Below, one piece after another: positions 551 through 22,787 of a DNA stretch of 64,000 nucleotides. The DNA is from Curvularia clavata. Taxonomy: Eukaryota. Position numbers and translations under genes: made by a program. The stretch spans positions 744,001 through 808,000 of the forward strand of contig CP089275.1 of NCBI GenBank assembly GCA_023920165.1, in the 5' to 3' direction. The first letter of the stretch is position 1; every line of letters starts with the position of its first letter. A model generated the notes under the pieces. It worked only from the letters and a program-made list of their open reading frames with translations. It ran no database searches and was not told the origin of the DNA.

Positions 551-629
551 TACTGTAATAAAATTATTACTCTTTGTATACCTCTACACTCATCTCACCT
601 CTTACAGCCGCTTGATATAGACTGTTTTG
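551..629 (+). mobile_element. Short pogo/Fot1 DDE transposase fragment
   Basis: Reads NKIITLCIPLHSSHLLQPLDIDCF (DDE_1 motif LC.P.HSSHLLQPLD); similar to the reverse complement of ~6935-7015 in the pogo element. Confidence 0.8.
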
Positions 630-1011: not shown

Positions 1012-1111
1012 CTTCTTAACTTAACTACTATACTTCTTCCTCCCTAGTTTATAATACTATCCTTCTCCTCCCTAAACTTATCCTCAAGCTTTTCCTTATA
1101 TCTAGCTAATA

Positions 1112-1624
1112 ATATCTGCCCCCAGGTCTAAAGAATATCTTCGTCTTACTCTTAAGATTCGTCGTAACGGTCTCCCCGCGCCCGTCCCTTATAATTATTA
1201 TTTTGTAAATAACTATTAGTACGTTATAATGCCCAAAGTCGACGGCAAGTGTTTGAAGTGCTCTGAGTGCACTCGTCTAGATTATCTATGTATTAATATA
1301 TTATAGATGTCGTTAGATAAGACTTATAAAAAGTATTAAAAGAAAGTAGATAAAGATAAGTAATTATTAGCTTAAGTAATTTTGTGGTTAATGCGAAATA
1401 AGAAGATTCTAAAATAGACTAAGGAACGTACTGCGAAGAAGACTATGTATTTAGCGAATTCCTTACGCGAAAGTAGTAATAACGTAGACGCGCAAGAGTC
1501 CCTAAACTACCTTATAGCCAACGCGTTAGTAGAGTTCTCGTCTATTATATAGAGCACTTTAGATTCTCTAGACGCCCTAGCGTTGTCCTCGAATTCTAGT
1601 AATACTCCTATTTTTTCTTTCTAA
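1112..1624 (+). pseudogene. Antisense accessory ORF (~170 codons) of retrotransposon B; Cys-rich Zn-cluster-like motif plus coiled coil, RIP-inactivated
   Basis: One frame from ATA (RIP'd ATG) at 1112 to TAA at 1622-1624 with only RIP-type TAA/TAG stops; reads GLPAPVPYNYYFVNNY*YVIMPKVDGKCLKCSECTRLDYLCINIL*MSLDKT...LMRNKKILK*TKERTAKK. Confidence 0.7.
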
Positions 1625-2542
1625 TAGTAAGTTCTTTTTATAGTTTTATAGTATCTTTTAATAATTACTAAGATTATCCTCTAGTTTCTATATATTTTTA
1701 CTATTATTATATCCTAACTATTTAACTAGATACTTGGTTTTGTTACGCGTAGTTTAGTATACTAGAATTTTCTCAACTTCAAATTCATCTTCTTCTTCTA
1801 GTTCGAAATAGAATATTTTTTATAATAGTATTTTAGAGTCTACTAGTTTTAATAACTTAATGTAAAACTTTAGATATATTTTTGTATCTAGTAGTAGATT
1901 AAGTATATAGGTAACTAGTCTATTTTAGATTTTAATTAAAAATAGCCTAATATAGATATTATCTAATCTCTTATTTGGTTGTATCGTGCGAAGGTTCTTT
2001 ATAAGCAGATATACTTTATCCCCCTTCTTTAGCTAAAGTGCTATTTTTCTTTTCTAGTTAATATATAAGATACTTTAGCGTTAAACCTTTTTAAGTAATT
2101 TTCGTAGTTCTTTATATATTTTCTTCATTTCTTTAGCTATAGCGATAGCTACTTTTATTTTTAAACTTGGTAACATTCTAGTAAAGAGATTCGGGTGTCT
2201 TCTATAGTTCGCATAAAACGGTGTTTGTTTCGTTAATTCTAATAGCTTATTATTATATGCCAGTTATACTATAGATAGCAGTCATACCTAATTATTTTAT
2301 TAGTGGTTGCTATATATCCTAAGATATATTTTTATCATACGATTTATTCTTTCTATTTATCTATTAGTCTCTAGATAGTAAGCTGTAGATAATTTTCTTT
2401 TAGTACCTATTTCTACTATAAGTATAGTCTAGAAATTTAATATGAAAAGCTTATCTCGATTGCTAATAATCGACCTTAGTATTCTATAATATCTAATAAT
2501 CTTATTATAGATAACGTGCGCAAGTTGTACTATAGTATAGTC

Positions 2543-3057
2543 TGTAAGAAAGTTGTAGGTAGGTAAATAGAATAACTTTCTTAATTAACTAAAATAGCTT
2601 ATTAAGAGGTGAGAAATAGATATAAAATATCTAGTAAGTGGTCAAAATGTAGGTAATAAGTAGATATATTAGAGCTAGGTTAACAAATAACTATAGACAG
2701 TCAGCGTCTTTTATAGACAACTAACGGAGATAGGCGCTGCGTCTATTTCCTATCTTGATTTCAAATCAACTACTAGACTAAAGTATAATTAGATTAGTTT
2801 TTTATCTTTTTTATGATTTATAAGATTTTATTATAGACTAAAATCTTTATAATCTAGCTTGCTAAGCAAGCTAGATCTAAAATATAGAATAATGACGTCT
2901 TATATCTAGATAAGAAAGCGGAGAAATACTTAAAATACTCGGCAGTTAATAGCTACATCAAATGTAGAGCTACAAGAACAAAAACAACTAATTTGAATAG
3001 CTAATCTTTTATAGAATAATACTAAAATATAATATAATAATTATATTATAATTTACA
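2543..3057. mobile_element. Solo LTR (515 bp) inserted in the integrase of element B
   Basis: TGTAA...TTACA termini; perfect 5-bp target-site duplication TAGTC at 2538-2542 and 3058-3062; removing it restores the integrase frame (..FQKDY/TIVQLAHVI..). Confidence 0.88.
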
Positions 3058-6000
3058 TAGTCCTTTTGGAATAGTATGTATTTAGCGTATTTCGTGAATC
3101 TGTTAATAACGACTAGTATTGCGTTATAAACTGTGTCGGTAATAGGGTCCGTTAATAGTGGTAGTTCTATAACGAAGTCCATAGAGATGTCTATCTAGAG
3201 TGTATCTGGCAGTTCTTGTATTTACATCTCTCCATATAGTGCGTGAGTGCTATATTTATTTTTTTAATAATATTCACATTTAGCGATAAAAACTACAACC
3301 TTTTCTTTTATTTTGCTAAATTCGAAGTTCCTTTAAATTAGTTCTATTATTCTAGCGATCCCGGGGTATCTATATATAGGGTCGTTATAATATTACTAAA
3401 TAATTGCTTCCTACTAGTCTTCAGATATATTATTTCCAATTATTATAAGTAGGTTAAGCTCGTATACTAGACTTAATATTCTATCCTTATTTATCTATAG
3501 TATTGGTCAGTCTATAATAGTTTTTATTTCTGCGATATCTAGTCTTCTACTAAAAGCGTCTGCTCTACCATTATCTTTTCCTAGTATATATACGATTTTA
3601 AACTTGTATTGCCCAAACAGCTTAGCCCATCGGGTTTATCGGCGGTTGAGAACCTTAGTGGTAGTGAAGTGGGTCAAGTTCTTATAATCCATGTATATAG
3701 TGAGTTCTAAGCAGCTATATACGTAGACTCTCTAGTGTTATATACAGGCTACTATAGCTAGTAGTTTTTTATTGTATACGTTATATTGTTTTTTAAATTC
3801 TAAAAATTTTCTTAAATAGTATATAATTAGGTGCTATTTATCTTCGTATAGTTAGTATATGCATCCTTCTAGAACTAGGTCTAATATATTAGTTTTAATT
3901 TGTAGTAGTTTATTTAGTTTGAATATTCTAAGGTATAGTACTTTTATATATGCTTCTTTAAGTGTTTCGAATACGATTTCTCCTTTAGGTCCTATATTAA
4001 AGTAGTCTACTACTTGTTTTTTTAATAACTATATAAGTAGAGCTGCGATTTTCAAGAAATTCTTAATAAATACTCTATTAAAGTTTATAAATCTTAGAAA
4101 GAATTGTACTTCCTTAAGCGTGTCTAGTAATGGCTATTCTATAATAACTTTAATTTTTTCTTTACTTATCTATACTCCTTATTTTCCTATAGTATAGCCT
4201 AAGAAGTCGATCTAAGTCTTATAGAATTTATACTTCTAAGGTTTAAGTCTGAGGCTATACTTGTCTAAAGCAGTCAGCACCTTATGGATATATTTAGTAT
4301 ATTATTCCTTATTCTTAGAGTAGACTAAGATGTCGTCTAGATATATAACAACAAATATATCTAGGTAGGGCCTAAGTATATTATTAATAAGTTCCTAGAA
4401 TGTGGCTAGGGCGTTTATAAATCCGAATAGTATAACTATATATTTAAAATACCCGTATCGTATTCTAAAAGCTATTTTCTATTCTTCGCCTTCTGCAATT
4501 CTAATAAGGTGGTAGCCGTCTTATAGATCTAGTACTGTAAAGATCTTTACTTATATTAGTCGATCCCTTAATTCTATAATATTTAGTAGCGGGTATTAGT
4601 TCTTAATAGTGATATTATTAAGCCCTTAGTAGTCGATATATAGTCAATCTAATCTGTCTTTCTTTAGTATGAATATAATTAGTACTCTAGCTAGTAATTC
4701 TGATTTTTATATATACCCTTTCCTTTAGGCTTTATCTAAATACTCTTATAGTACTTTAAGTTCTTATTCTATTAGTTAATATATTAGGCTGAAAGATAGT
4801 TCCTTTTCTTTCTAGATCACGATTCTATAGTCCTAAGATTAATACTTTAGTAACGCGTACTTATCTACCACTTCCTAAAATAAATGTTCTAGATCTCTAT
4901 ATTATTTAGGGATTTCTAGAGTTACACTTTTTTTCTTTTCTCTAGCCTCGTAGTCTATTAGCCTAGTTTCAGTATCTACTAAGTTTGGCTTCCTACTCTA
5001 GGAACTATCTTTTAAGTATACTCGTTTCTCTGCGTTATTATACTATTTGGTAATATTACTCTTATCTACTATCGAACTCTGCTAATACGTAGGCTAGCTT
5101 ATGGTTACGCCTAGTCTATAGCACTTGAATTTAAACACTTTTAACTTCTAGTTAATCTATAGATTGTATTCTCGTAGCTATAGAAGTCCTAAAATAATAT
5201 TATAGATAGCTAGTCTAAAGACGTTTAGGTCTACTTTCTTTTTATACTCTTAGATGCTAAGTGTTACTTGTCTAATCTCGTCTATAATTCTGTTTCCTTT
5301 AGATATTAGTTCGCCGCTAGCGATATATAGTAGGTATAGCTTTTGTTTCTGCTATATTTTAAGTCTAGCTCGTTATACTACGTGCGCTAAAACGTAGTTT
5401 GTCTATAATCCTAAGTCTACTAATACCTATATCTATATTCTACTAAGCTTTACTATAAGCTTAATCAATCCTAGAGAGTTTATTAAGTTAATTTTCCTAG
5501 AGAGGCCCTACCTTTATAGCGCTAGTCTAAAAAAGTCTATAATTCCTTTATAAATCTATTATAGAGTTTCTCTACTTCGTATTTCTTGTATTTATCTAAG
5601 AGATAAGTGTGCTATAAGGGTTAGTTATATACTTATTATACGTTACCTTTACTTCAAATAATACAGATAGTTTGTATATCTACTACTTCTCTTAGGCTAT
5701 CTCTTCCTAGGAAGTGTATTACGGTGCGCTTATCCTATAGATGCCTCGCGCATTCTATATTAGTATACTCTGACTATAATCTGTTGCATTTAGGATATTT
5801 GGGAACGTTAGTTAGGTTCTAGTCGGATCCTTGCTTAGCTTGCCAATATACTAGATAAAAGTCGTAGACGCAACCTGTCCAGTAAGTCTACGTATACTTA
5901 TAGTTGTTTACATAGTACTAGTAGAGATTAAGTTAGTACCGATTGTCGCGTGTCCAGTCTGCTTGTGCCTTTTTAGCCTATTAAGATGTCATTATAGAGT

Positions 6001-6100
6001 TCTCCTTCCAGGGGGTTTTCTTATCTTTGGGGAACTTCGTATTTCCTCGTAGTTGTTAGATGTTGGCCGTAATATACGTGTAGTCTGGTAGTTTCTAATT

Positions 6101-8254
6101 AGTTACAGTAGAATTATAACGTACCTCACGGGTTCGCGGTCTACACAGGTTCGCGGTCCACTTTTGCCAAGACCCTACCAAAACCACTACATTATAGCCT
6201 AATACAGCCCAACCTTAGCTAGTTTAATATAAAAAAATATAAAATACTATTCAGAGTCTACTTCTACTTCATTCTTACACGTTCGCGCATTATACCTAGT
6301 CCTATTGCACCGTCCACACCACTATTGAGACGGTTCACCCACTTCAGCGCGCTTCTACTTCTTTAACTTCTTCCCATTACTACGCACCCTAAAGTCCTAG
6401 AGAGCAGTTAAGCGCGCCCTATCTTCAACTATTAAAGTCCCCTCTGCCTAAATCTGCTTTCTTTTATATAATTTTCGTCGCGTAGCGGCTGTATTAGCTG
6501 CTTCAAGCTCACTAATCCGTTTTTATACTAATACTAGCTTATGCGCGATAATAGCTACCCTCTTTAAGACCTTCTCAAAAGCCTCTACTATAGACGTTAG
6601 TAAGCTATCTAGATGCCTCTAAATCCTCTACTTTACTAGCGTCGATTGCGACCCTATTTCAAGAGTATTCCTCGGGGTTTGCAACAGCCAGGGCTAGATA
6701 TCGACAGGTAGGGGTGATAGAGTGCGCAACTAGACATTAAGAGCGGATATAACCCGTTCTAGATTAGATAGAACCAATCCAGCGCCTCAAAACTCTCCTT
6801 AGACATTACTAGCTATAAATAATGCGTTAAAAGCCCGCCTAAAGCAAGATAGGAACTCTTATTTAGTAATATAGTTAATCTAGATACGCATAAGCAATTC
6901 GACTTAGCGCCCATAGGCCTACTTTAAAAGGGCAAAACAGCCCACATTAAGCGGCTATAAGAGATAAAACGAGTGTAGAGACATGCAAAAAGTAACAATT
7001 TTATTATCTTTACAGTATTTTTAGAAATCCAGCAAGTTATAGCTCTCATAGCCATTAATAAAGAGTAGACAGTAGATACCTACCACCTTCTTCTTTATAT
7101 ACTCATTAAAGTGCTTTAGCCACGCAAGACTAAGCTCATTAGTCGTCCAGCCGTTCTCAGAGACTCCAATAACCCAGTTCTAAAGTATATCTCCATCTTT
7201 ATACCAGCTTAAAAGATAGTGGCGCGCCTTAAGTATAATAAAGGGCGGAATCGTCCACCTGGTCGCATTAATGCCCTAGATAACCGTCGCCCACTCTCTA
7301 TTACCAGGCTGGATAGTCTTTAGCCGTCCACGTCTCTCTAAAGCTATAATAACTACTCTAGGAGTAATCTAGCCCATCATAAAGCCTATCTCGTCAAAGT
7401 TATACGTGTCGTCATCTTAGATACCATACTTAGCTTTCATATTAGCTACTAGGCCAAACCAATCTTAAATAGCCTTAGGATCCTTACAGAGTGCTCTCTT
7501 ATAGTTATACTTACGATTAAACTTTACTTTAAGCTTAGGGCAGCGCTTAACAAATATACTAGGCTAGTTTTAGCCAACCTAGCCTAAATTACGCTCAGCG
7601 TGCAAGAAATTAGCCATATTAGCCACATCTGCGAGCCTAGAAGGAAATCCACGTAAACCAAGATCAAGAATATGCTCAACAACCACCTCCTCCTCAAGCT
7701 TAGTTAGATTCATTATTTTAGGCCTATAATCTGCTTGTGAATCCCTTCCGTCGCGTCTTTAACATAGTGTTATTCAAGAGACGTTATAAAGAGCTGCAGT
7801 GCGTCGTTCTAAGAGATTCGCGTCCTATTTAAGAGCTTGAAGAGCAAGCTGTATTTAACATTCACTAGAAGACTATAACTGCTGTTATTATTATAACATT
7901 TGTGGGTAGTAGGTATTTTGGTAGGGTCTTGGCAAAAGTGGACCGCGAACCCGTGTGGACCGCGAACCCGTGAGGTACGTTATAGAATCTATAAAATATA
8001 CGTAATATATTTTATAGTAATATTCTACTAAGCCTATAAGACGTATAATTACTTATACGTTATTAGCTAGTAATATAGTTCTCTTTTAGAGAGGTCCCAA
8101 TATAGGCTTTATCCTTCTTTCTTCCCATATCTTGCACTATTCCTCTCTGTCAGGTTTGTAACAATAGCGATCTTTATCGTACATTCTAAGTAGTTTCTCA
8201 ACCTTTTGTCATCAGTATCTAGAGAGGAGATCCTTCTCCTTATTACTTGTAACA
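6101..8254. repeat. Probable LTR-like segment (~290 bp once the pogo insertion is removed), split by the 6119-7980 element
   Basis: AGTTACA at 6101 and TGTAACA at 8248-8254 form near-perfect 7-bp inverted termini; no matching TSD; not similar to the 630-1011 LTR. Confidence 0.4.
6119..7980 (-). mobile_element. Full-length pogo/Fot1-family DNA transposon (1862 bp), transposase RIP-inactivated
   Basis: ~65-bp TIRs ACGTACCTCACGGGTTCGCGGTC... at both ends with an internal direct repeat; TA TSD at 6117-6118 and 7981-7982; minus-strand remnants YNFDEIGF, QPGNREW, SENGWT, HSFYLL*PLNVGCF. Confidence 0.95.
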
Positions 8255-8531
8255 AATAGGCGATAGTCTACGCCTAGTAGATACCATCTCTAATTGTGGC
8301 TAGACATCTTAGAGGCGCGTTCGAAGAGTAGATTCGAGAACGTCGTACGCTACTATAAGTGCGCGCAATAATTGTGTTAGGTTATTATGATAGGAATCTA
8401 TAGCAAGACAAAGTCTACCTTCACGAGAAGTCTGTATAGAGCGTTGTTGTCGCGGCATTGTGGTAGTTGTGTGGAAAGTCGCGTCAGGTTTGGTGGGGTG
8501 CGCAGCTTACTGGTAGAATACGTCACACCGT
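8255..8531 (-). mobile_element. 5' relic of a second pogo-family transposon (HTH-encoding start)
   Basis: From ATG at 8458: MPRQQRSIQTSREGRLCLAIDSYHNNLTQLLRALIVAYDVLESTLRTRL*..RRRLSPI, a typical pogo psq-type HTH; truncated at 8255. Confidence 0.72.
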
Positions 8532-8975
8532 ACTAATACCGGCAGCGACGGCAATTCACAGTCTATTTTTATGCGCAGGTGATGCGCATGTTCCGATCCG
8601 TGTGTCGTCGATCGCAACCTAATTCCACAACCACTAATCATCACCTTGCAAACATTTCCCCGATACACGGGTTACTTCCCTGCAGCTTCCGCGTTTACGG
8701 GGTCGTGAGTATTTCCTCCGCTGGGTATGGCGCTGTTGGCCTTTGCTGGGGTGACGAAGCCTCGTATTCTCGGTCATATGAGCTCATGATGTTGCGGATC
8801 ATAGCCCAGATTGGCGCCGAGATAGACCACCTTCATCACTGCAAGAGATCCACATACGAGACCAAAAGACGTATAAAACGTGAGACGTAGTGCCTCACAA
8901 CTTAAGAATACAATCTGCAACACTATCCAACATTTACTTCTTATTCACTTAACGAGCTATCAAAGATACCTCAAC

Positions 8976-9608
8976 ATGAAGTACGCCACCGCCACAATCG
9001 CCGCCGTTACCATGGCTCTCGCATCCGCAAAGGACTGCAAGCTGCCCCCCATCTCTGAAGCCGTCGTCCCCGGCGACGTCTTTAAGCTCGTGGCTCTCCC
9101 TAAGGTCGCCAACGAGATCGAATGCGAGCCCTTCCAAGCCAAGAACAACAACCTCCTGATCGGCGATAGTTTCCAGAGCGCAAACTGCACCACACGACTC
9201 CCCCGCGACCATGCGTCGTTCGTCCTCAACGGTCAGGGTCTCCTCTTCCTCTACACCGGCGACACGCCCGACAACTTCGAAGCCCAGGAGATATTCGTCG
9301 ACCGCTCTGGCATGGGCCAAGGCAACATCCAATACACCACCGGCCTCCCTGCAAATATTGGCCGCAACCAGGAGTTGGGTCCTTTCAAGATTACCGAGAC
9401 TAGCGACCTTGTCTTTGATAACGGCAATGGTGCCGTCACGGCTTTCCAGGCTTGTCCCCCGGCTAACGGTGACAAGTTGACAGGCTGGAAGGTCTGGCTC
9501 GCGGGCAATGACAAGCCGGCCGGTAGCGAGGGTTGTGTTGAGCTGAATGCTAGAGCTGTCAAGGAGACGAACCCTGAGGCTTGCGAGTACTCTGTTTATA
9601 ACTCTTAG
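8976..9608 (+). CDS. phiA: Secreted cell-wall protein, PhiA-like (210 aa)
   Basis: Signal peptide MKYATATIAAVTMALASA; family motifs FVDRSGMGQGNIQYTTG, GPFKI, FQACP, W.VWL...P.G..GC; GC3-rich codon usage; ATG 8976 preferred over the longer ORF start. Confidence 0.85.
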   Translation: MKYATATIAAVTMALASAKDCKLPPISEAVVPGDVFKLVALPKVANEIECEPFQAKNNNLLIGDSFQSANCTTRLPRDHASFVLNGQGLLFLYTGDTPDNFEAQEIFVDRSGMGQGNIQYTTGLPANIGRNQELGPFKITETSDLVFDNGNGAVTAFQACPPANGDKLTGWKVWLAGNDKPAGSEGCVELNARAVKETNPEACEYSVYNS

Positions 9609-9639
9609 AGAGGTGGTTAGTGATAAATATCTATAGATA

Positions 9640-10370
9640 TAATAATAATGCAATAGGCTTAAATCGCGATTATAATTAATATCTTGTATGTTTCCTCTTA
9701 TCAACATTAGTTAAAGGAAAAGTTAGAGAGATGGGTTAGTCGATCTGGTCTCGCGGAACCCTTAATAGTGGATTCTTAATAATGTAGGATGATGTAGAGA
9801 AGGATATCACTAACATAAGATAACGCGTATGAGGGCGACTTTTTATAGAGGTAGAGTAGTGTTACGACCCTGGAAAACAATCACACGCGCGGACTAGTAA
9901 GTGTAACGGTACGAATAAGACTGTCGGATCTGTATTGGTGGGAAGTGTCACTTAGAGGCATATAGAAGTGTGTGGGATAACAGAAATATCTTAGATTTAT
10001 TTAGTAGACACTCGTTGGCTCTTAGTTAGACCATAATGAGCCTTTTTATCTAGGGTAGGTCTTGGTCTATGCATGGTTATAGTAAGCAGTTTGGAGGATC
10101 CTTGTAGTCAGACACTGCGCCGCAATCCTGTAGCTATGCCGTACGAAGATTACGTAACTTGCTCTATAATCTATAATGCTTAGCGAAATAGAGTAATAGA
10201 GTAATCTATATTAAAGGTCGAAAGGTAAATCCTTAAAGCCGCTTAGAGAGCTACTAATATTACACATTATAGGCAGCTATGACACGTCGAATGCCCTGAA
10301 ACTAATCTATACAATAAGCCTGAATAACTAGAGTAAGCCTATCTTCTTACTAAGTTAATATCGCGTTCTA
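9640..10370. repeat. AT/TpA-rich RIP-like relic, possibly degenerate LTR sequence
   Basis: No ORFs, TpA excess, LTR-like TGTTAC/TGTAAC words at ~9860 and ~9902, but no TSD found. Confidence 0.35.
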
Positions 10371-10588
10371 TTGTTGAGGCATTGTCAGCACAGTCTTCGG
10401 GATCATCTAAAATGTTCAGAAGCATGATGTCCAAACTGGATTTACAGTTGCAGCATACATGGTTGCTAGTGGGCTAACTCTGTTTGGATCGATGCAAGTA
10501 TTTTTTAGAGAAAGTTTGGAGTTATCTCCCGGCCCTCTCCTCCCAGACTGAGTGGCGCTAGTACGTGAGCGCTGCCTTATATCTCCAA

Positions 10589-13500
10589 CTATATGATATA
10601 AAAGTCTTCGTCTGAATAATCATTAGGGTCGACATTCCTGATTCCAGATTGGAAATTTGTAAATTCTGTGAAGCCAACTCGCTCATACACACGTGCCTTT
10701 TCAAACTGTGTGTCAACCGCCTTTAAGACCAGACATAATGTACATCTCGACTCTCTGTCCAGCTCAGTCTCTTCATTTGTTTTGTAGATTTTCTGGAACG
10801 ACACCTCGGTTTTTACCAATGGGAATATGTAAAGCATCGCTGCTGAGTGTAGCTGATTCGGACCGGGCTTAGCGATTGCATAATCTGGAGAAAATTTCAC
10901 GCCCAGCTGGTCCGTCTTGCCAAGTATTTGAGTGCCAACAATGTCTTTGAGACGATAAACCGACATGTTTTGAGCATCGGTTGTCAATTCCCAGGAACTC
11001 GTGGTGATTTTCCCTCTCAAATAGAGGTAACAGCCCTCTTTTACAGGTCCATATATGTCTTCTGTGGCCAAGTTGATTTGCGCATCTAGGAGAGTGAATT
11101 GCGGATCCGGATTAAACAGGCAGATGTATCGTATGGGATCCGATATCGAAGCCCATGACCAAGAAGGTGCAATGTAGGTTGTTGACTTGGACTTGCGCAC
11201 CCTCTCCGTCCCTATTGCTTCAGCATTGGAGTTATCGTCTTTCCTAAAGATCATAGTCGATCCCACAAACCATGACATATCTCTAGTGAGGTCCATCCGC
11301 CATAGTCCAGCAAGATACATCGGCAGGCTCCCATGCTCACCGCCTTCATTCAATTTGTATCTCATATCGTACAATGTAGATGCCAGACCAGATATAGCAA
11401 TCAAGCGATCCGTGCTATACGTAATTCTCAAAGCGCTGTATGTCGTAACGAGGTGGTCCCAGCCGATAGCTGCAAGCTGTGCACGCTTGGCTATTATCCC
11501 CTCCTGTGATGTTGTTGTCCATCGTACATCCATTAACGGTTTCATCAGATGCACGAAGGATTGTCTTGCCTGACCACACTCGCAAGTCGTTAACTGAGCA
11601 CATTCAAACACGACTTCAGAACCGCAAAAGTGAAGTACTCTCGGGGATAGCCAACGTTCTTGTAAGACCCATGCACGGGTAAGAAGAGGAAAGCTTTCAA
11701 GGGCAGTCTCCAGATTATTCGAGTGGCCAAAATGAGGCTTTTCCTCCATCAAGTCGCAAGGGTAAGCAAGGAGACTGAAAAACCCACTTTCGGGATCCGT
11801 ACTAGTTGAGCTCACCACCGAGGGTCTTTCTGCAATCTCGAAACTCTTCTCTGAATTGGCAGAGCTTGTAGCTGCGATGCATACGGTGCAGTTGCGATAG
11901 TATGGCCCCATTCTCTGCGACTCGTAACTCCAATCCTCTTTGCTGTCTTGCTGTATGCAGAGCGAATCAATCCAGAGTCTTCTCAAGCCAAGCTTCTTGC
12001 AGACCTTTATTGCGTCGAGGAACACTGGTGTGAGATCGCTTTTGCGAATTTTCTTAGTGTATTCTGCTCTGGTTTCTTCTGTCAAAGTGCAGGGATGCGA
12101 ACCACCCCAACAATGACTCAGGCACGCATACTCTCCATGTTCGCCATTGGAAATGACTAGTTTCACGGGATCTGACTCGCTCAATCCAACGTCTAGATAC
12201 CGTGATGGAAGCTGAGGCGAGGCCGGAGTTAAGCAACCTTCGTGTTCTGTTTGACAGAGTTTGATCCAGCTCCGAATCGTCGACCATCTCAGATTCGGAT
12301 CCAGCCAACAAAGATCATGCGTATTCCGTGGGATAGTTCGATAACGTTTTGGAGCACGGGCTTTTGCCGCCCCTTTCTCATTTGCTTTTTCGTGGTCTCC
12401 AACTTGAAGCATTATTGCGCAATTTATGTCGACGCATTTTGGTACGTTTTGTTTTCCATGTACTAGCCGATCGTACAAGATTCTCCTCGTGCTAGTCTTC
12501 ATTCCATAAGCTCGAATTACAAGCAGCACTTCCCTCTTTGAAATAACTCTTAAAGGCCCGCGGTTTTCCCAGCGGTCGCGAGCTAGTACCCATGTTTCGC
12601 ACCGGTCACAAGCAGGTGCGTACTCCTTGATAGCTTTGTCAACCAATTTGCAAAACGTACAATGGCGAGTCTTTGAAACTGTTGGTCCATTGAGATGTAT
12701 ACTCGATCCCGAGGAAGGGGTATAGAGTGCGCCCGAATAGAACAAGTTGCTACACCGAGGGCATTCTGAGCCGAATCTGCGTCTGCAACGCCTTGTTAGA
12801 TATGTTACCTAACAAGCCTGTGTGCTAAAACAGTGGATTCTGTCTAAACGAAAAGTTCACTTACTTGACTAATGCACCTCCTTCATTAGTCACCAATTCG
12901 GCTAGATCAAATGATCTCTGAATCCATTTGTTATCACCCGCATTGAAGCTAGCAGTTAAGATCCCGCTCTCAAATCTTGTTTCGCGTGCATGTTCGGGTA
13001 TTGGCGTCTCAGAGAAAAAGGCGAACATCTCATCATCGCCTGGTCCAATTATATCATGGAGTCTGATGGTCGATTCCTGATATGAACCGCGTGAATTGAG
13101 GCAATTTGCGATGAGATGCCATGAACGCTTTTGCTTGCAGGTGATTAGTTTGGGAACATCCGCGTTGGGTAGCCATCTCCTATCTGATAAATCCGCCAGG
13201 ACTTCATAGTCCAGATCCTCGTTCTTCGTCACTCTGAGGGGCGAGAATGACCCATCTTTCAACCGTAGCACCCTGGACAATGCGATCGAGATTGGGTGGC
13301 CGTCATTGTGAGTCGCGCACAGAGTAGTGCCAATCATGTGAGCATTCTGAACACTGGTTGAGAAGTTTCGCTCATTTCTGTCGAAAGCACCATTTTTGAC
13401 GCCAAGGTAATCCTTTAGGTCAATATATATGTCCTTGGCTTTCTCATTCGGTCCAAGATACTTGGCTGTGAGGAGTCGCTGATCTATAAGTCTGAGATTG

Positions 13501-13841
13501 TAGCATCCTTGCAGGCGAATTTGATCACATCGGCGAAATTCGACCGGGAAGTTCACTGGGTTAGGGTCCGTGGAAACATTAACGACCACCTCGAGCTGAT
13601 CGTACCACCAGTCCCCTCCACTAGTCTTCAGCTCAGCGCATAGAATGTTCTGTTCTAGAACGATGTTCCGAGCACTGAACGAAAAACGGTATCCACCAGG
13701 TTGGAAGCTTCCTTCGTGGTTGCCGATCTTGGAGTCTAAAGGTAAGAGGTATGCGCTCAATCCTTCTAGTGGGGTCTGATATTCAATACATAGTTGACAT
13801 CGATCAACAAGCGCTAGCTTTAGCACTGGAGTATAATTCAT
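10589..13841 (-). CDS. CVNH (cyanovirin-N homology) x3 - HET domain fusion protein, ~1056 aa, two exons (13841-12865, 12782-10589)
   Basis: Exon 1 has three CVNH-like repeats (LDSKIGNHEGSFQPGGYRFSFSARNIVLE..LCAEL...GDW; IDLKDYLGVKNGAF...NFSTS; FDLAELVTNEGGAL). An 82-bp GTAAGT..CTAAC..CAG intron at 12864-12783 joins in frame to the HET ORF (YACLSHCWGG, WIDSLCIQQD, RAWVLQERWLSPR, APSWSWAS, YERVG). Confidence 0.85.
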
Positions 13842-14943
13842 TTTTGAGAATGCTCGATACTAGAGACTGAGGCTTGATATAAGAGCTGATTCTCTGTAGC
13901 AGAGGTTAATGGCCAAAATGACAAAGATGATGCTCAAAATTGGAGATTGATGCTCAACGAATGCCTAAAACCAGAGATAAGGGCAGAAAGAGCAATACCC
14001 CGCTTTATCACAGTGTAAGGCGGTAACAAGTGGCAGTACTTTGAAGTTGGCAGCCTAATTTCGGCAGAAAGGCTCTCTACTTCATACAAAACCGGGAAGT
14101 AAGCATTCTTGGGAACAAGCCAGCAAGCACGATGCTTACATGTTCGCTTGGTTGCTAATTTAGAGGGGCCTGCTTGGCTTACGCTTGCTTATTTAGTTAA
14201 AAGTGAAAGAACTACTTACTTAAAGCTGGCTTAATTAATATATATACCTAACTATACTAAAGATTTATGTAGACTTCTATCATGACAGAACACCTACTGA
14301 CAGCTTGCTTTAGCCAGTTCTGCAGTTGGAACCCCGCTGTGGGGAGCGATTGCCAGAATCTGTGGCCAGATTACTACTACTGCGTTGGTATATGAGCGGT
14401 TAGGTGATGATTTCTATTCGAGGGCTGGCTGCACGGACGCCAGGGTCGAACATCAAGGAAAGATATTGATCCACGTGAAGTGGCTACATTGTTGGGGTAG
14501 CGTTCTGCGGCGGGGTCAAGTTCCATATCTCAGGGGAAATGCTTGTTGAGGCTAGCCCCACTTAGCGTCCGTTGTATAGATTGGACCTCGCAGCCCGTTC
14601 AGAGTCAAGTAACAAAACCTTTACATCTTTGGTATGAATGACGCCAATGGCGACGTGAGCGCCTCTTGCGCGCTAACGCCAAAGCCTTATCGATTGGCAT
14701 GAATATTGAACGATGTTGACGGTATGCGATAATCCCTAGTGGTCGAGATTTGATTCCATGTTGGGGGTAGCCAAATTTACAGGGGAGAGAAGACGGCTAA
14801 TGCCCTCTTCCATACCCCAACTCGTCGTAACTGATCCGATTGCATAAATTTGCTGCATCTGCTTGGCAACGTGAAGTATACGATCCTGTCCGCCGTATCC
14901 CGAGGTCCTCTGCTTACCTTTTCACTTACTTCCAATGATAACG

Positions 14944-16023
14944 ATGGCCAAACTTGGCGCATGGTTGAGGAGGCATCTGGTGTTCAGGACAGTTCGTGAA
15001 AAACAATCCAAGGACCAGCCACCCTTCTTTACCTCAACGAGACGTCCTATCACGCCGATGTGTTTTGACACGGCAACATGCCCCTTCTTCTAACTGCCAT
15101 ACGACATCTGGAGCAAAATCCTGAATATGGCTTTTGGAGGGCTTGTTCTCCATATGGACGCCGTGCACGAAGAGAAATCTTGGAGATGGGAAGGGGCCGT
15201 ATGCAATCGGAACGGAGCAAAGTTGCTCCCATCGATGCGATACGGTTGGATTGGTCCATCGAACGACAGTTGCATACGGCAGATGAAAGACCACAAGCGG
15301 AGCTGGCCCACCAACCCAGACGCATTCGTTGCTGGTCCAGAGACGTGGTGCATTGGCATAATGGGCTTCCTACTGTCGTGCAGGCAGGCGTATGCTGAAG
15401 GTATTGAAGTATTGTACTCTACCAACTACATCTCCATGCACAGCGAGTTTTTACTTTCTCACCTGCCCAAGCTCATACCGCACAACCGACTCGCATCCAT
15501 CACCTCACTCGAGATAGTCGTCAAGGCGCACTTTATAAAGCAAGAGAATGGGAGGTCATCCTACAACCTCGACCACCTAGAGCTAGTTCTCGATAATATT
15601 GTCAAGCACTGTGGTCACCTCTGCAGATTCTGCTTATCGTTCGTTATCGACGAACGCCACGGCCACGCTCTCCTTGACGGTCCGGCTCTATCCTTGGCCG
15701 ATGCCTTTTGGAGGACCACGCAGTTACGCATTATGAAGGTCGAGCTGCCCGAACGGGATTACTGGCCGGCGTGGGATTACCAGCTGCAACCCAAGCACGA
15801 TCATCCATGCGAAGGACCGACGAAGCGCCACAACGATAGAGCGCTATGGAGATCGTTAGATGGTGAAAAGCCTGCGGTGCAGAAAAGAGCTATTGAACGC
15901 TTTCCATATCCGCCACTAAAGCTGCCAGTAGAGGAGACTGAGGATAAGCGAGTAGAGAGTGCAGGGTATTGGATTTGCGAGGGTTATATCGGCCATAGTC
16001 GTCTTATATGTACACTAATTTAA
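14944..16023 (+). pseudogene. DUF7730-like fungal protein with a premature stop (or N-truncated product from ATG 15127)
   Basis: ATG 14944 MAKLGAWLRR...TCPFF*LPYDIWSKILNMAFGG is in frame with ORF 15127-16023; TAA at 15091-15093 sits in an FF.LP..I motif; family motif GFLLSCRQAYAEGIEVLYSTN. Confidence 0.65.
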
Positions 16024-16199
16024 ATGCTATTCTGGGTCCTACATACTTTTATATGCTTCCGAGTGACTACTAGTCTGATAATGATCTGAGCAGTCTTGTG
16101 TGCGCGGTTACAGATTAGAAGCTTGGCTTTTTATCAAATATAACCTCGTGCATACTAAGGCAATTGCTCCATAGAGCTTAGCCCCTTATATTTTATTCA

Positions 16200-17320
16200 T
16201 GACATTTTCAAGACGCAATGCTTAATATAATAGCAATGTAGGATTATTCTTTTTTACTTACTCGAGGTAAAATGTAAATCTTAGAAGTATGTGTGTATAG
16301 TTTTCTTTCTGTCGATTTATCTAAGTGTAGAGTGGTGATGTTGTAGTCGTGGTTTTGCTTGCAGTTACGCTGTCGGCCTTCCTTTCCTTACATGATTTGA
16401 AACCCTTCTATGGAAAGAAGGCTTTTAATCGACCTTATAGAATAGATTAACCTGAGATCTGTAATCTATGGTGCTAAAATGTATTGCAAATTCAATGGAT
16501 ATTTTCTAATACTCAATAGTGTCCCCAATCTTTCTACTAATATCGAATATTATAGTAACCCTTTTTCTTCTTTTTATATACTCTAAGAAATATAGTATAT
16601 TACAAGTAACAAAGAAGGATTCTCTGCTTTGTTGAAAGATGTACAAGGGAAAAAGTCAGGTGGCTGGGCCTGGCCACCCGGGTAACTGACATATATATAC
16701 TCTTCCCTGTCTATCTTAGTTAGCCAATGAATCCATTATCCAACATCCTTGACGCAGGAGTCATGGTTGAAGGCCAACTAGCGACCACGTCAGAAGGTAA
16801 TAATCATCGCGGTGCTTAGAGTCACGTGATGCCCCATCAGGCCAAGGCTGGCTATGAGCGATGGCAGACCTACCTATAATAGCAGCCACCGTCAGGAAGG
16901 ATCCGACCATCAGTGATAGCACGAAACTCTCTAATAGCAGGACCGAAGGCAATAGGTATAGCAATAGGTTGGATTTCATTACTTGTTATGGTCAATTTAC
17001 AATAGTTCATCTCTTATATACATAGTTAATTAAGAAAGCTACTTTGTCTACCTACCTCCAACCTTCTTACATATTTAGCTATCTTATCACCTCCAATTCA
17101 CGAACTCCAACGCCTAGTAGTTAATACAAAGATAGTAGAGCAGGCATAGTAATAGAGTAGGGTATTAAAATTTACAAATCTAGGGGTAGAAAATAGCTAA
17201 ATTTAGCATAAAACCCTAACACTAAATCTAATTTAGTACGAATCTAGATGCGATTCGCCGCGTTATATTGGTTAGGGATTGAGGATAGAGAGTATTATTC
17301 AAGGGAGTCTATACAGTATG
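16200..17320. repeat. AT-rich intergenic region with TpA-rich RIP-like patches (probable TE relics)
   Basis: Composition only (16200-16620 and 16980-17270); no recognisable coding motif. Confidence 0.3.
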
Positions 17321-17328
17321 GCACCCTT

Positions 17329-19360
17329 TTACTTGCTAATTACAAAGTCGACACTCTTGTCTGTAGTTCTCATGATGCCCAGTCTTGGAGTAGACCTTTC
17401 CTCTTCGAAGTCGCTGAGCGCATCGTCTGGCTTCTCTCCTGCGACTCTTCCACTGGTGATTTTGCGATCAAATAACGCATTCACTAAGCTAGCAACGCTA
17501 AATTTGTCTTGCGCCTGGCCCGCCTCTTCCGTCAACTTCAGAAAGGCCCAAAATGTGAGAGTTATCCCAAGTAATGCATATACCAAGTTTGCAGTGACGA
17601 GAAACCACAAAGCAGTAACTGGAAGCGACGTGACAGTCTTTACATAGCGCTCTTGCACAAGAAAGCTAGGTCGAGGACTCAGTTGAGAAGCAAGTGGATA
17701 TGAATATGCCTTACTCATCCCTACTTCAAACGAGCGTATAAAGTTATCGGGTGAGCTGCGCGAAAGTGGTCCCGTTGCTTCATCCTGGAAGATGTTGGCC
17801 AAAGTGCCGACTTGGCGCGTACCCAACATGCTCGATATCCCTGCAACGCTGCCGTTACTTCGGGTCTGGTTCAGAATACTAATCTGCGATGTAACAGATG
17901 TGTATACTATATCCCACACTAATGAAGTTAGCACTCGATGGCACATCATGTATGTGAGAGCACCATACCTGTGACCTTGCAATGCATGAGTACAAACGCT
18001 CCTAGAAGATCATGCTTCCAGATCCTTGGATCCATGACAAATGACCGGGGCAGATGCGAAAAGTCACCTTGTACTGCTGAAGGAATTTTTCGCATTACGA
18101 GCACTTCCCAGTTGTTCTTAAAAATTGAGTTACCGTCCTCAGTTCCATTCGCCACAATCGTGATATTTAATCTCACTAGCTTGTTGTCGAAAAAAGGTGC
18201 ACTTTCTGCGGCGTATTTATGAAAATTCATCATGTTGGTTATTGTGTTGTGGCTGGTCAGATTCCCAGCAACGTCTAGGCCAGTGGCCTCCTGGGTGCAG
18301 TTGAAAGGAACTAGCATAACGGGGTTGCTTTGACGGTCCTGCGCATTGGTAATTGGTCTTGATGTACTACATGCCGCAGGTGGAATTGCAGAACACGTGG
18401 TAGACACTCCAAATGATGAAGCTTTCCAGTCTAGATTGATGCCGTCATTGGCTGGCCCAACAATGACATACTGAAACCCGGCTTTATCCATATATGTGAA
18501 CGCTTTGTGTTGATTGGATACGCCGTTCTTCATGTCTGAAATAGTGCTGGCATTGGTAGGTGCCAGGGTTGTTGCGTTGTTGTATGTCGCCTGCTGCAGA
18601 GTGATAGCACACCCCCAGAAGATCTCTTCCCTTGAGCTTCCGAATTTCGCTTTATCTGTACACCATGGTGCGAGGCCTCGACTGAACTGATTTTCCATTT
18701 GCGACAACTCTCTGTACTGAACAATCTGGGCTGTCTCGGCCGCTATGTGGAAGTATACATCTGCAGCCTGGACCAAAAGACTTTACGCATTAATCAGCCG
18801 ATATATCTTCATAGATTTTCAAAAATGGCTAACCTCGCAACAACTCCTAGATTGAAGACCGCAGAACAATTCGTGAGCAAACGCGGTGCCTTTGATGCTC
18901 CCTCTGTCCTCTCATGGTCCCAGAACACGTTTTTAGCTGCTGCGAATGCGAGTTCAAAGGAAACAGTGATCTCAGCGTTGAGGAGTCTCAACAGCATAGT
19001 TGTATGATCTGGGCCGAGCAAAGATTCGTTCTCGTGCTTCTCGGAAATTCGCAGATAAGACGCTGCATTGACGTACGAGTAAAGAGCCATAAGAACTCCC
19101 AACAGCGTAAAACTTATCGTAGCAGACCAAGAAGATACAAATGCTAGACGAGCTGCAGGGAACTCAACGAGGTAATGATGTTTAGAGGTTGTATTGACTG
19201 ATTGAGGACTCAGAGCTTTGTCTGGGTGGCTTTCGCTAACAAGATTTGCGTGCACAATGTATATGACGATTGTGGAGGATGCGATCATTGGAACAGTAAT
19301 AAGAAACGACTGCCAGAGAATTCTGCGGCTATACACGCTTTGCAAGACCGGATCTTTCAT
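17329..19360 (-). CDS. Uncharacterised multi-pass membrane protein with a large Asn-rich (N-glycosylation-site) luminal domain, 3 exons
   Basis: ORFs 18809-19444, 17946-18776 and 17329-17982 join via GT-AG introns at ~18833-18781 and ~17968-17918; hydrophobic segments near both termini; ATG 19360 (MKDPVLQS). Confidence 0.75.
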
Positions 19361-19829
19361 AATTTGGTGTTTTTTGCTCGTATCGCGTGCAAAGAGATAA
19401 CTTTGGACGTGATGATTGTAACTACGAATATAAAAGACGGGCATTCTGAGGGCATGTCTCCCACGTATCGTAGGATGACTTCAGAAACATACTGTGTATC
19501 GACAAACTGCGCCGCCTCCGAGAAACTTATGTGACAGTAACCGGAGTCAGTGCCGTTCTCAGTCGGTTCCGAGATACAGCTGCAGAGATCGTGCAAGATG
19601 CATAAATGTTGCGCTGAAGCGAACCAGTGGCCTGCAATCGCGCTGTTGGTCAGTGCGTTACATGTCTCAGGCGCACCCTTGCATTTCGTAAGGCAAACCA
19701 CACACGAGACACTCTACATGGTACTCGGGCCCAACGGTAGCTGCAGTAGAATTTCAATGAAATTGCCTGTGCTCCGTACGGTCCTATCACCTCGACGATA
19801 ATGATTACCTCAATAATGAGAATATAACT

Positions 19830-20388
19830 ATATATCGTGGCTCGATCTTAGACGATTCTATCGCGCAGAAGTTCGAGATAGAGACGATGTTTTCGTTCTG
19901 AATCGGCTTGGTGGCGGCTGCAATCCATGGGTGCGGCTCGCTTTGATTGAGGAAACTCTAGGTAACGTTTGATAAAGCGATAGACCTAGTGTTAACCGAT
20001 TTTTTTGGCGATATTTGAAGCTAATTTCTAAATAAGATCTCGATCAAGTATGGCGCTGCGTACGGTAAGTCGATCTCTATATTTTATCAGATCGATTTCT
20101 TATTAAAGATAGAAAGCCTGACAATTTTGAGCATCAACATAGTATGAAGCCGTTTGACCCTGGTGTCGGCGCGTGAGCGTTCTTCAATTAATACCAAACC
20201 TTTTCGCGGCTTGGGGGTATAAGGGTTTTTCGCCAGGTTCTAAAGCAGCGATGACTGCAGCGCAGCGTCGATAGGCTTCATTTAGGGTGGCTGCGGTGCG
20301 ATCATATAGGTGGTGTTGGTGGTGGGGTGGAGCGGATTTTGGCCCATCTGGTACGGTATTAATGGTGGGACGACTAAACGCCGCCGTA
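19830..20388 (-). mobile_element. 5' relic of a pogo-family transposon (psq/CENP-B HTH region)
   Basis: Degenerate frame AALEPGEKPLYPQAAKRFGIN*RTLTRRHQGQT...QEIDLIKY.DRLT...LASNIAKKIG*H*VYRFIKRY...MDCSRHQADS; preceded by a TA and a CCACC-rich terminus. Confidence 0.78.
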
Positions 20389-20498: not shown

Positions 20499-21301
20499 AT
20501 GGCAGAAGAGAGTAACATACCGTGCGCATCTACCCGTTCATATACATCCTTTGTCAACGTGTATACGTCAGTCGCAGATTTGGCACTTATGCTAATAGAT
20601 CCAGTTATACGCTCCAACTCAGCACCAAGATATGTGATCGTCTGCCACGCGAACTTCGCAACCAAATATACTCACTCCTGGACCTTGAACAAGAGACTAA
20701 ACGGTCGAAACCAATTGACGACTTCGTTGGTGACCAGTTTTGCGAACAATTCTCTCGAGAATGTCTGCTTTGGTACTACGAGAACGTGTCGCAGATGCTA
20801 CATCGGCCGTTTTTTATTTACTATGACATCAAACGTCTCATTCAACTTTATCCTAAAGTTAAGAAGAGCCCAGGTTTGACTATTGTCTTGGAAGCGAGTC
20901 AGCCAGACTTCGAATTTGAGGATCTCACAACGCTCATGGACATGTTCAAGGCTACTGGATATTTTGACGATCTCAATAAAGACTTTAAAGTCTGTATTTA
21001 CATCGATCTAGCAATTCATCATATGTGGCGTTCCATGAATCCGAATGTTGAGCAAGCCATTGTATTTTCTCAAAGCATCCTCCAGTATTTCAGAATGCGC
21101 ATCAAGGACACTTCGTGTTTCGTGCGGTTGATGGAAGCCGAGGAATATGAGGCCAGAGAAGTGGGAATGAATATTACAGAGAACCTGGAGGAGTCAATGG
21201 ACGAAATACTAGAAAGAATAGGATGCTTGGTTCACGTGGGGATGAAATTTTCAACCCCAAAGTATGTAGAGGATAAGTCCTTCAATCGTACCCTATTGTA
21301 G
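20499..21301 (+). CDS. Hypothetical protein with an F-box-like LPRELRNQIY motif
   Basis: ATG 20499, a probable short intron ending GCTAAT..CAG at ~20604, then the long ORF to 21301; exact donor site uncertain. Confidence 0.55.
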
Positions 21302-21579
21302 AGTTAACATGCTACAGGTGGATCCAAAAGCCTTATGAGATGGCTATTAGGAAGGAAGAGTTGCTCAAACTGATTTGATACGCTATTTTCTTTTATTAGG
21401 TACTCTACTCTATCGCATAGTCTACTATCTTCGCATTAGCATTGCACTTAAATTTTGGATAGATAGTACTTCTTCTAACTATAAATAGCAAAGGACTTAT
21501 GCCATAAGTACAATATCATGAATAGTAACTACAAGACGCAGTTAAGACGTTTTAACGTTTGTAGATAGCGCATACGAGC

Positions 21580-22787
21580 AAAGTACCTACTACAGCAGGT
21601 TTATCATGTACAAAACCTGCAAGTTCTTCTTCATCGTGTTTGGTGTGACATGCGCAGCGTCCAACAGCCTAGGCTCGCTGGTTGCATACCGTTTCCTCGC
21701 CGGCGCCATGGGTTCATGCTCCATGACAATCGGTACTGGATCTATTGCCGACATTTTCCCAGCAGAGAAACATGCTGTAGCTATGGGAACTTACGTTATT
21801 GGTATAAAAGTTGGCCCAACCATCGGTCCTATTGTTGGGGGTTTCCTTGCTCCAGTAGCAGGCTGGCGCTGGGGCTTTTGGGTTGTAGCTATTGCTAGCG
21901 GTTGTGTGACCATCGTTGTTATTCTGCGTATACTTGAGTCATACCCCTACGCCATCCTTGGACACAAGGCACGGCGCTTGCAGGAAGAGACAAGAAGTAC
22001 GAATCTGCGGTCGGTACTACACACTGGAAAAACGCCAAAGAATCCGTTTACCTATTCTATTACCCGTCCGGTAAAGATACCTTTGTTGCCAATCGTCTTA
22101 TTGCTTTCCCTCTACGTGGCTAGCTTATACGCCTATCTCTACCTCTGCTTCACTACCTTTGAGGTTGTTTTCTCTCGTCAATACGGGATTTCCAGTGGGG
22201 AGGCCGGCTTAGCCAATCTCGGTATAGGTTTTGACTCGGCCTTAGGATGTGCTGGTAGTGTAGCCGCGAATGAAGTTTCCAGGAAATTGGCTGAAAAGCA
22301 CGGTGGTGACCCAAAGTCCGAGTATCAATTGCCAATCATGATACTTGGCGGGTTTTGTACCCCAATTAGCCTGTTCTGGTACGGATGGTCCGCATTCGCT
22401 AAAGTGCATTGGATTGTGCCTATTATTGGCAGTTCCTTTATTGGGATGAACATGGCCTTTACCTTTGTACGATTCCCTTTGCGAGCATCTTGTCGGCTTT
22501 GCTTTATTAATAGCTTGACTGATAACCAGTAGATGCCTACCACCATATACCTTGTCGAACTTTACACAGTCCATACTGCATCTATGACAGCTGCAAATAC
22601 AATTCTTCGATGCCTTTTAGGAGCTTTACTTCCGCTTGCTGGTACTCCTTTGTATGATAATCTGGGACTGTGCTGGGCCAAATCACTTCCTGGCTTCATC
22701 TCTATCGTCTTCTTCCCAGTACCATTTATCTGGTATCTTTATGGGGAGCATTTGGAGAACGCCAAGATTTTCAAAGTAGAGTTTTGA
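21580..22787 (+). pseudogene. MFS DHA1-family drug:H+ antiporter, 5'-truncated
   Basis: Motifs RFLAG..GS....G.GSIADIF, GPTIGPIVGG, GWRW, LFWYGW; intron 22467-22532; the first ~3 TM helices are absent and replaced by AT/TpA-rich sequence (21370-21580). Confidence 0.7.

Follow-up and report, generated by a model that had tools for sequence, protein, structure and literature searches.

A two-exon gene of Curvularia clavata joins three CVNH repeats to a HET domain: a candidate recognition and cell-death protein without a NOD module

Introduction

The minus strand of a 64,000-nucleotide stretch of Curvularia clavata DNA (GenBank assembly GCA_023920165.1, contig CP089275.1, positions 744,001 to 808,000 of the forward strand; here called the window) carries, between positions 10589 and 13841 of the window, two adjacent open reading frames (ORFs). 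One of these resembles lectins of the cyanovirin-N homology (CVNH) family and the other contains a HET domain. Do the two belong to one protein and, if they do, what might a lectin module contribute to a HET protein? An earlier interpretation made from the letters of the window (the sequence-only reading) had proposed a one-component sensor and effector, in which glycan binding inside the cell could trigger HET-mediated death without a nucleotide-binding oligomerization domain (NOD) module. The analysis presented here identifies a single expressed two-exon gene with a product of 1056 amino acids, the type of the sequencing runs in which its spliced form was found being guessed as RNA. The gene belongs to a conserved orthologous family that spans several classes of the Pezizomycotina. 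The role of its product as a NOD-less recognition and cell-death protein is put forward tentatively.

One gene with two exons

The gene is composed as follows, in coordinates of the window:

12865..13841, minus strand: exon 1, starting with the ATG at 13841-13839 and comprising 325 codons and the first two bases of codon 326; it encodes the triple CVNH module
12783..12864, minus strand: phase 2 intron of 82 nucleotides, with a GTAAGT donor, a CTAAC motif and a TTGCAG acceptor
10589..12782, minus strand: exon 2, comprising the last base of codon 326, 730 codons and the stop codon TAG at 10591-10589

When bacterial start codons are allowed, the two ORFs are 326 (12861..13841) and 718 (10589..12745) amino acids long. 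The sequence-only reading had joined them in frame through the 82-nucleotide intron to a protein of about 1056 residues. In the gene model, the branch-point-like CTAAC sits 11 nucleotides 5' of the acceptor dinucleotide, the codon AAA is split by the intron after its second base, and the spliced coding sequence of 3171 nucleotides runs without an internal stop to 1056 amino acids plus the stop codon. This joining is borne out by two kinds of data. Contigs of four public sequencing runs were compared with positions 10400-14100, and in those of X1, X5 and X22, which come from three different studies, position 12782 is joined directly to 12865, exactly at the junction predicted (12864/12783). The skipped 82 nucleotides have CT..AC ends on the plus strand, that is, GT..AG on the strand of the gene, and both exons, with the joint between them, are contained in a single X1 record. 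The fourth run, X20, spans the whole stretch as one piece (longest record 240,060 letters) with the 82 nucleotides retained and looks like a genome assembly. As the RNA label of the runs is a guess, the joined form is either cDNA or an intron-less allele, the frame being continuous in both cases. The second kind of data comes from related metagenome loci, five of which were returned; L004 ends within exon 1 and L005 (34 % over 50 amino acids) was disregarded. The three loci that continue beyond exon 1 (L001, L002 and L003) all have an 82-nucleotide GT..AG intron at the same position, likewise within a split AAA codon, and the change of frame there rules out read-through. The relatives encoded by these contigs show 83-88 % identity, and the product of L001 is an intact protein of 1055 amino acids.

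Two independent neighbouring genes with a fortuitous in-frame junction would have nothing in their favour beyond the existence of two separate ORFs. This exceedingly improbable arrangement was ruled out by the spliced contigs in three of the four runs and by the intron of identical phase in the related loci, and the collinear orthologues that occur as single proteins also speak against it. Alternatively, retention of the intron could make a stand-alone triple lectin of 326 amino acids the main product and the fusion a minor isoform. The TAA that ends the 326-residue ORF does fall within the splice donor (G-TAA-GT, 12861-12864), and in one Xylaria grammica assembly the locus is annotated as separate genes for a 358-residue cyanovirin and a 482-residue HET protein. 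Against this, the joint is spliced in all three runs that show one, with no intron in their listed contigs, while another X. grammica assembly has a fusion of 1051 amino acids and 24 further listed relatives are also annotated as fusions. Moreover, no ATG is present near the 5' end of exon 2, the first one lying 93 codons past the acceptor, from which a product of 637 amino acids would start. We consider such a predominance of the short lectin very unlikely.

The position of this stop codon has a side to it that concerns annotation. Retention of the intron would yield a stand-alone triple CVNH lectin, and because the stop sits inside the donor, gene prediction that is ORF-based or weak separates it into a "cyanovirin" and a "HET" gene, a practical problem for annotation. 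Many "CVNH-only" (308-335 amino acids) and "HET-only" (about 640-760 amino acids) matches stem from unannotated contigs, and their ends coincide with the exon boundaries; such pairs, for example P0006 and P0081 of our searches, for both of which the longest contig is given as 52,200, probably represent single genes whose exons were called as separate ORFs.

The N terminus is probably correct as placed at the ATG at 13841, since an in-frame stop lies six codons 5' of it (the stop-to-stop ORF starts at 13859) and the alignment with the orthologue P0003 begins at residue 1 of that protein. In the whole protein, no hydrophobic segment suited to a signal peptide or a membrane span was found, the maximum Kyte-Doolittle mean over 19 residues being 1.03. 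Residues 6-12 form the first strand of CVNH repeat 1 in the structural model described below. A signal peptide was rejected on these two grounds, hydropathy and the model, as the sequence-only reading had it.

The triple CVNH module

Exon 1 encodes three CVNH repeats:

13530..13841, minus strand: CVNH repeat 1, amino acids 1-104; 24.6 bits to PF08881 when scanned alone, modelled as all-beta with a predicted local distance difference test score (pLDDT) mostly above 90
13224..13529, minus strand: CVNH repeat 2, amino acids 105-206; 30.4 bits to PF08881 alone, VIA-align Z 14.4
12867..13223, minus strand: CVNH repeat 3, amino acids 207-325; 40.3 bits to PF08881 alone, over profile positions 11-102 of 102

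The whole of exon 1 matched the CVNH profile PF08881 in three stretches (E 2.1e-24, 86.6 bits). Scanned alone, each repeat exceeded the curated cut-off of 24.5 bits, albeit barely and marginally in the case of repeat 1. The AlphaFold2 model of exon 1, built on an alignment of 31 rows, is all-beta with a mean pLDDT of 90.2 and a predicted template-modelling score (pTM) of 0.82, and a Foldseek search with it returned only cyanovirin-N or CVNH structures at ranks 1-11 (TM scores of 0.69-0.81, normalised to the target). The three repeats that had been proposed from the letters were thus recovered by the profile, and the structure prediction returned the cyanovirin-N fold.

The same Pfam family contains cyanovirin-N and the fungal CVNH lectins GzCVNH (2l2f), TbCVNH (2jzk), NcCVNH (2jzl) and MoCVNH3/CVNH-LysM (2l9y, 5c8o). 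VIA-align gave Z scores of 10.0-14.4 for 17 chains of the CVNH family, every alignment falling on repeat 2 (one alignment is given per chain). The best superposition was that of repeat 2 (model residues 107-203) on cyanovirin-N 2z21_A, with a Z of 14.4 and a root-mean-square deviation of 1.7 Å over 96 residues. For the solved fungal CVNH lectins and cyanovirin-N, the fold shared with repeat 2 is reflected in Z scores of 10.9-14.4 and deviations of 1.7-2.4 Å over 95-98 residues, at a sequence identity of 17-24 %. The solved fungal proteins are single-domain lectins or lectins with a LysM insertion and have no effector, whereas the protein of the window has three CVNH domains in tandem and a HET domain. 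Percudani et al. are said to have defined the CVNH family in 2005 and may list multidomain CVNH architectures. Each domain of cyanovirin-N has two binding sites for Man-alpha-1,2-Man, and the protein needs multivalency to be active (PMC4926178).

The HET domain and its surroundings

Exon 2 adds the following parts:

12650..12763, minus strand: motif of four cysteines, CxxC...(30 amino acids)...CxxC, amino acids 333-370, conserved in the aligned rows
11657..12130, minus strand: HET domain, amino acids 544-701 of the full-length protein (P0002 amino acids 218-375), PF06985 E 1.2e-27
10592..11656, minus strand: C-terminal HET-associated region of about 355 amino acids, amino acids 702-1056, with PSWSW at 11153-11167

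The HET domain is complete, as had been proposed: PF06985 was matched end to end (profile positions 1-146 of 146) with 97.5 bits, the cut-off being 22.5. Among 48 relatives of exon 2, 38 alignment columns are invariant, including W270, C275, Q278, W371, Q374 and E375. Neither NACHT nor NB-ARC was found in either exon by Pfam at E values up to 10, in agreement with the sequence-only reading; besides CVNH and HET, that search gave only a sub-threshold match to DUF2442. A model of the 730 residues of exon 2, based on the alignment of 48 rows, had a pLDDT of 84.4 and a pTM of 0.86, in which exon 2 is predicted to fold as one compact body including both HET and the C-terminal region. Foldseek with this model gave no match in the PDB at E ≤0.001, and neither the extension N-terminal to HET nor the C-terminal domain was assigned to a fold. 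Docking of CVNH repeats 2-3 on the exon 2 protein was predicted with a score of 0.00, which, controls not having been run, carries no weight either way.

The four cysteines lie in an extension of about 215 amino acids between the CVNH module and HET. They had been described as a Cys-pair linker (CPRC...HCTFC), and the cysteines of CPRC and CTFC are indeed conserved, in 25 of 27, 27 of 27, 32 of 32 and 33 of 33 aligned rows, respectively; a third pair (CDRC) is not. The same CxxC...CxxC arrangement also occurs N-terminally in HET proteins without CVNH (P0121, P0127, P0133, P0145 and P0166), so that, judged by these alignments, it belongs to the scaffold of the HET protein and is not a linker specific to the CVNH-HET fusion. 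The motif is a putative zinc site, and this HET lineage may have in it a small zinc-binding module not described before.

In the C-terminal region of about 355 residues no Pfam family was recognized, nor was a solved fold matched when the region was searched within the 730-residue model. It does contain the sequence APSWSWAS (11153-11170), of which P539, S542 and W543 are invariant in the 48 rows. A PSWSW motif is named in PMC10890737 as a feature of HET proteins of the TOL and PIN-C type. Neurospora crassa TOL and PIN-C have HET followed by a domain with the PSWSW motif and have no NOD module, as in the window protein; no CVNH module is reported for them, and the likeness is one of description and of the PSWSW motif. 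By its motif content, the HET part of the window protein is classed as the non-NLR type with PSWSW, NLR denoting a NOD-like receptor.

A conserved family and several fusion topologies

The CVNH-HET protein does not stand alone. With exon 1 as the query, an exhaustive HMMER search gave only 56 proteins at E ≤0.001, 34 of which were scanned with Pfam (the 22 left out were 55-319 amino acids long). Both CVNH and HET were carried by 17 of these 34, and by 25 of the 120 relatives listed by a word-indexed search with exon 2, which shows that the architecture is recurrent, a point on which the sequence-only reading had proposed a survey. Two-domain relatives are found in several Xylaria species, Astrocystis, Apiospora, Lasiosphaeris, Lasiosphaeria, Podospora didyma, Apodospora, Venturia effusa, Zasmidium, Recurvomyces and Stictis. 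The two-domain orthologues thus span Sordariomycetes, Dothideomycetes and Lecanoromycetes and form a conserved orthologous family across several classes of the Pezizomycotina. The proteins of Podospora didyma (B0H63DRAFT_488202, P0003; 1112 amino acids, collinear, 38-39 % identity in both exons), X. grammica (KAI0414526.1, P0010; 1051 amino acids) and Lasiosphaeris hirsuta (P0079; 1086 amino acids, 47 % identity in exon 2) have the same domain order over the full length. The nearest named relative of exon 2 among the matches listed is from Periconia macrospinosa (63 %).

CVNH is joined to HET in at least three topologies. In nine of the 17 proteins CVNH precedes HET, in four it is nested within HET, and in four it is combined with a partial HET domain and ankyrin repeats. 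In the nested form, which occurs in Eurotiomycetes, CVNH lies between block 2 of HET and the QE-containing block 3; among its members is P0023, the cluster of which contains Penicillium longicatenatum proteins. Using BLAST, the first half of HET, the QE block and the PSWSW region were found to flank the CVNH segment in P0036, P0038, P0042 and P0065, the last being a member of the P0023 cluster; for P0023, the alignments listed were those of the first HET half and of the PSWSW region. The fusions of different topology look independent in sequence comparisons, because the HET parts of the nested and ankyrin forms rank 124-138 of 138 in similarity to that of the window protein, below some 120 HET proteins that mostly have no CVNH.

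No published description of a CVNH-HET fusion was found in the literature searched, which lies mostly outside subscription journals. In the available parts of PMC10684091, PMC5870968, PMC8914235 and PMC3218866, CVNH and HET are mentioned separately and not as a fusion. The fusion is therefore new to the literature found, with two restrictions: the concept of HET combined with a lectin fold was published in 2024, and auto-annotated orthologues are already in public databases, P0003, P0010 and P0079 being named only "heterokaryon incompatibility protein-domain-containing" or "hypothetical".

Selection and variation

The mean identity to 19 full-length orthologues is 34-35 % for each of the CVNH repeats, 29 % for the N-terminal extension of the HET part, 53 % for HET and 40 % for the C-terminal domain. 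Nei-Gojobori ratios of nonsynonymous to synonymous substitution rates (dN/dS), calculated against L001 at a dS of about 0.2, are 0.35 for CVNH, 0.26 for the extension, 0.12 for HET and 0.35 for the C-terminal domain. On these figures, all parts of the protein are under purifying selection, with HET the most constrained, and the CVNH module is thus maintained. Diversifying selection on the CVNH repeats, for which the sequence-only reading had suggested looking, was not seen in the gene-average, pairwise comparisons with X1 and L001.

Strain X1 diverges from the window by about 0.8 %, with 25 differences in the coding sequence, of which 18 are synonymous and seven nonsynonymous. Five of the seven nonsynonymous ones fall in amino acids 2-37 (13731-13838, minus strand), within CVNH repeat 1; the numbers are too small to interpret.

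Neighbourhood of the gene

The following features surround the CVNH-HET gene:

8976-9608, plus strand: ORF of 210 amino acids, its N terminus resembling a signal peptide, without a Pfam family and convergent with the CVNH-HET gene
15094-16023, plus strand: DUF7730 protein (E 1.1e-11), divergent from the CVNH-HET gene
20516-22532, plus strand: MFS transporter (MFS_1 by Pfam), split over two ORFs
29366-31063, plus strand: sedolisin/tripeptidyl-peptidase, by Pfam

The sedolisin shares 95 % identity with the representative of a cluster that bears the name of an Alternaria sp.; other Pleosporales reach at most 87 %. Together with the Periconia macrospinosa relative of exon 2, this makes a Pleosporales fungus the probable source. 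A gene for a PII-like protein was not found beside the CVNH-HET gene, as the eight neighbouring ORFs gave only DUF7730, MFS_1, sedolisin or nothing. Nor is there a second HET or CVNH ORF in the window: the other 748 of the 750 six-frame ORFs of at least 40 amino acids gave no match to the family profiles. Past about 250 nucleotides upstream, the flanks showed no DNA or protein similarity between the window and L001-L004. The neighbourhood of L001 (86-90 % protein identity; positions 1-6000 and 9250-12975, compared with 4500-10588 and 13842-20000 of the window) is a different one, with a patatin-like ORF of more than 1234 amino acids upstream and a flavin adenine dinucleotide (FAD) monooxygenase and a short-chain dehydrogenase downstream. 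Either rearrangement of the region around the CVNH-HET gene or paralogy of L001 may account for this.

What might the fusion do?

The account that we favour, tentatively and as somewhat short of an even prospect, is that of a NOD-less recognition and cell-death protein, with the triple CVNH module for ligand recognition, a TIR-like HET domain as the effector and, likely, a mannose-type ligand. The CVNH module would recognise a conserved and multivalent ligand, most likely a mannose-type glycan that is foreign to the cytosol or misplaced in it. Binding at up to six sites would gather the protein into clusters, and the HET domains brought together in this way would become activated and cause cell death, in analogy with TIR domains, for which activation by being brought together is known.

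The closest studied parallel is BH, the product of het-B of Podospora anserina (Clave et al. 2024), on which the statements in this section are drawn from PMC10890737. BH consists of HET, a HET-associated domain and a fruit-body-lectin fold that sets specificity, and its proposed ligand is the PII-like protein BP2. It is thus a non-NLR HET protein with a fused lectin-fold domain, as is the protein of the window. The lectin fold of BH is of the fruit-body-lectin/actinoporin type, single and C-terminal, whereas that of the window protein is CVNH, triple and N-terminal, and the C-terminal domain of the latter has the PSWSW motif, which is assigned to HET lineages other than that of BH (PMC10890737). 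BH has a linked gene for its PII-like partner, unlike the gene of the window, and has highly divergent alleles under balancing selection, of which none was seen in the pairwise data from X1 and L001. By analogy with BH, a sensor-effector reading of the window protein is reasonable. HET is likewise presumed to be the death effector in the P. anserina NLRs HET-E, HET-D and HET-R, recognition proteins with a HET-NACHT-WD40 architecture; the window protein has neither a NACHT or NB-ARC domain nor WD, ANK or TPR repeats, and its putative sensor is the N-terminal lectin-fold module. The statement in the sequence-only reading that HET usually acts downstream of NLR sensors disagrees with what is reported for P. 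anserina and its relatives: there are 132 HET-domain genes in P. anserina, the HET-associated domain is not found in HET proteins of NLR architecture, and HET with a lectin fold but without an NLR module makes up 5-10 % of the HET proteins of Sordariales (PMC10890737).

Part of the one-component sensor-effector model has stood up well. The anatomy is as described, the fusion is real and recurrent, and BH supplies a precedent. The occurrence of CVNH-HET fusions in several topologies, their conservation across classes and the purifying selection argue that the pairing is functional rather than accidental, and the spread of the orthologues over classes is more easily reconciled with a conserved ligand than with a partner in allorecognition that evolves fast.

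It is the glycan, and with it the triggering of HET, for which a number of observations count against the account given above. The ligand proposed for the sole studied HET protein with a lectin fold is a protein and not a glycan (PMC10890737), and a secreted fungal CVNH protein, SsCVNH, is reported to target a plant peroxidase (PMC11064801). Binding of glycans by the CVNH module is predicted from family membership, and phmmer searches of the PDB sequences, made with exon 1 and with repeats 2 and 3, gave CVNH matches (E 0.0026 to 0.9) too weak to map the residues that would contact the sugar. Repeats 1 and 3 are supported by the profile and by the secondary structure of the model, superposition having been obtained with repeat 2. 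High-mannose glycans are normally not cytosolic. A wide VIA-align search with the HET core (about amino acids 214-402 of exon 2) gave Z scores of 4.4-5.2 for deoxyribosyltransferases and of 3.4-4.6 for TIR-domain chains, all below the noise of the tool at about 8. These nearest neighbours point, weakly and below that noise, in the direction expected from the remote HET-TIR homology, which has already been published. Finally, incompatibility genes account for only four of the 132 HET genes in P. anserina, and the authors stress that the mechanism by which HET kills is unknown (PMC10890737).

Some of the same observations could be accommodated if the CVNH repeats had been co-opted, as in het-B, to bind a polymorphic partner protein, self or non-self, or a pathogen effector, the protein then acting in allorecognition or effector surveillance. 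The recognition of BP2 by BH and the peroxidase reported for SsCVNH are precedents for it, the flanks that are not syntenic with L001 are what is often seen with variable genes, and the five nonsynonymous X1 differences in repeat 1 are in line with it. The expected partner, PII-like or otherwise obvious, is missing from the eight neighbouring ORFs, however, and the strains differ little, mostly at synonymous positions. The dN/dS of the CVNH module equals that of the C-terminal domain, and the orthologues are retained across classes, unlike typical het alleles. On balance we regard recognition of a protein as rather unlikely, though it is the most serious competitor. It is less probable still that HET is non-lethal here and that CVNH serves only to tether the protein to a glycan-rich structure or scaffold. 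Most HET-domain genes have no known role in incompatibility (PMC10890737), and the role of fungal cyanovirin-like lectins has been called "not elucidated" (PMC8227253), both of which leave room for such targeting; HET, on the other hand, is called cell-death-inducing wherever it was tested (PMC10890737), and the recurrence of independent CVNH-HET fusions, the nested ones among them, suggests coupling rather than tethering.

Implications

A NOD-less recognition and cell-death role of the window protein would have wider consequences if it applied to the CVNH-HET proteins at large. These could then be widespread NOD-less cytosolic receptors for patterns or danger, in which a multivalent lectin detects misplaced mannose-rich glycans, clusters and activates HET. 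We consider this generalisation unlikely to hold as a whole, and state it for what would follow from it. Mannose-rich glycans from ruptured endomembranes, invading microbes or mycoparasites would be sensed, which would be the fungal counterpart of cytosolic damage sensing of the galectin type, here with a direct connection to a death domain. The several independent fusions of CVNH and HET, whether as an N-terminal tandem, nested or combined with ankyrin repeats, would be the trace that this coupling has left in evolution.

In conclusion, the CVNH-HET family extends the het-B finding of 2024, the combination of HET with a lectin fold, to a second and unrelated lectin fold. Among the presumed death effectors of filamentous fungi, HET domains are the most abundant, and for almost all of them we know of no trigger. 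A HET protein with a recognition part from a lectin family of defined ligand class would therefore be unusually tractable.

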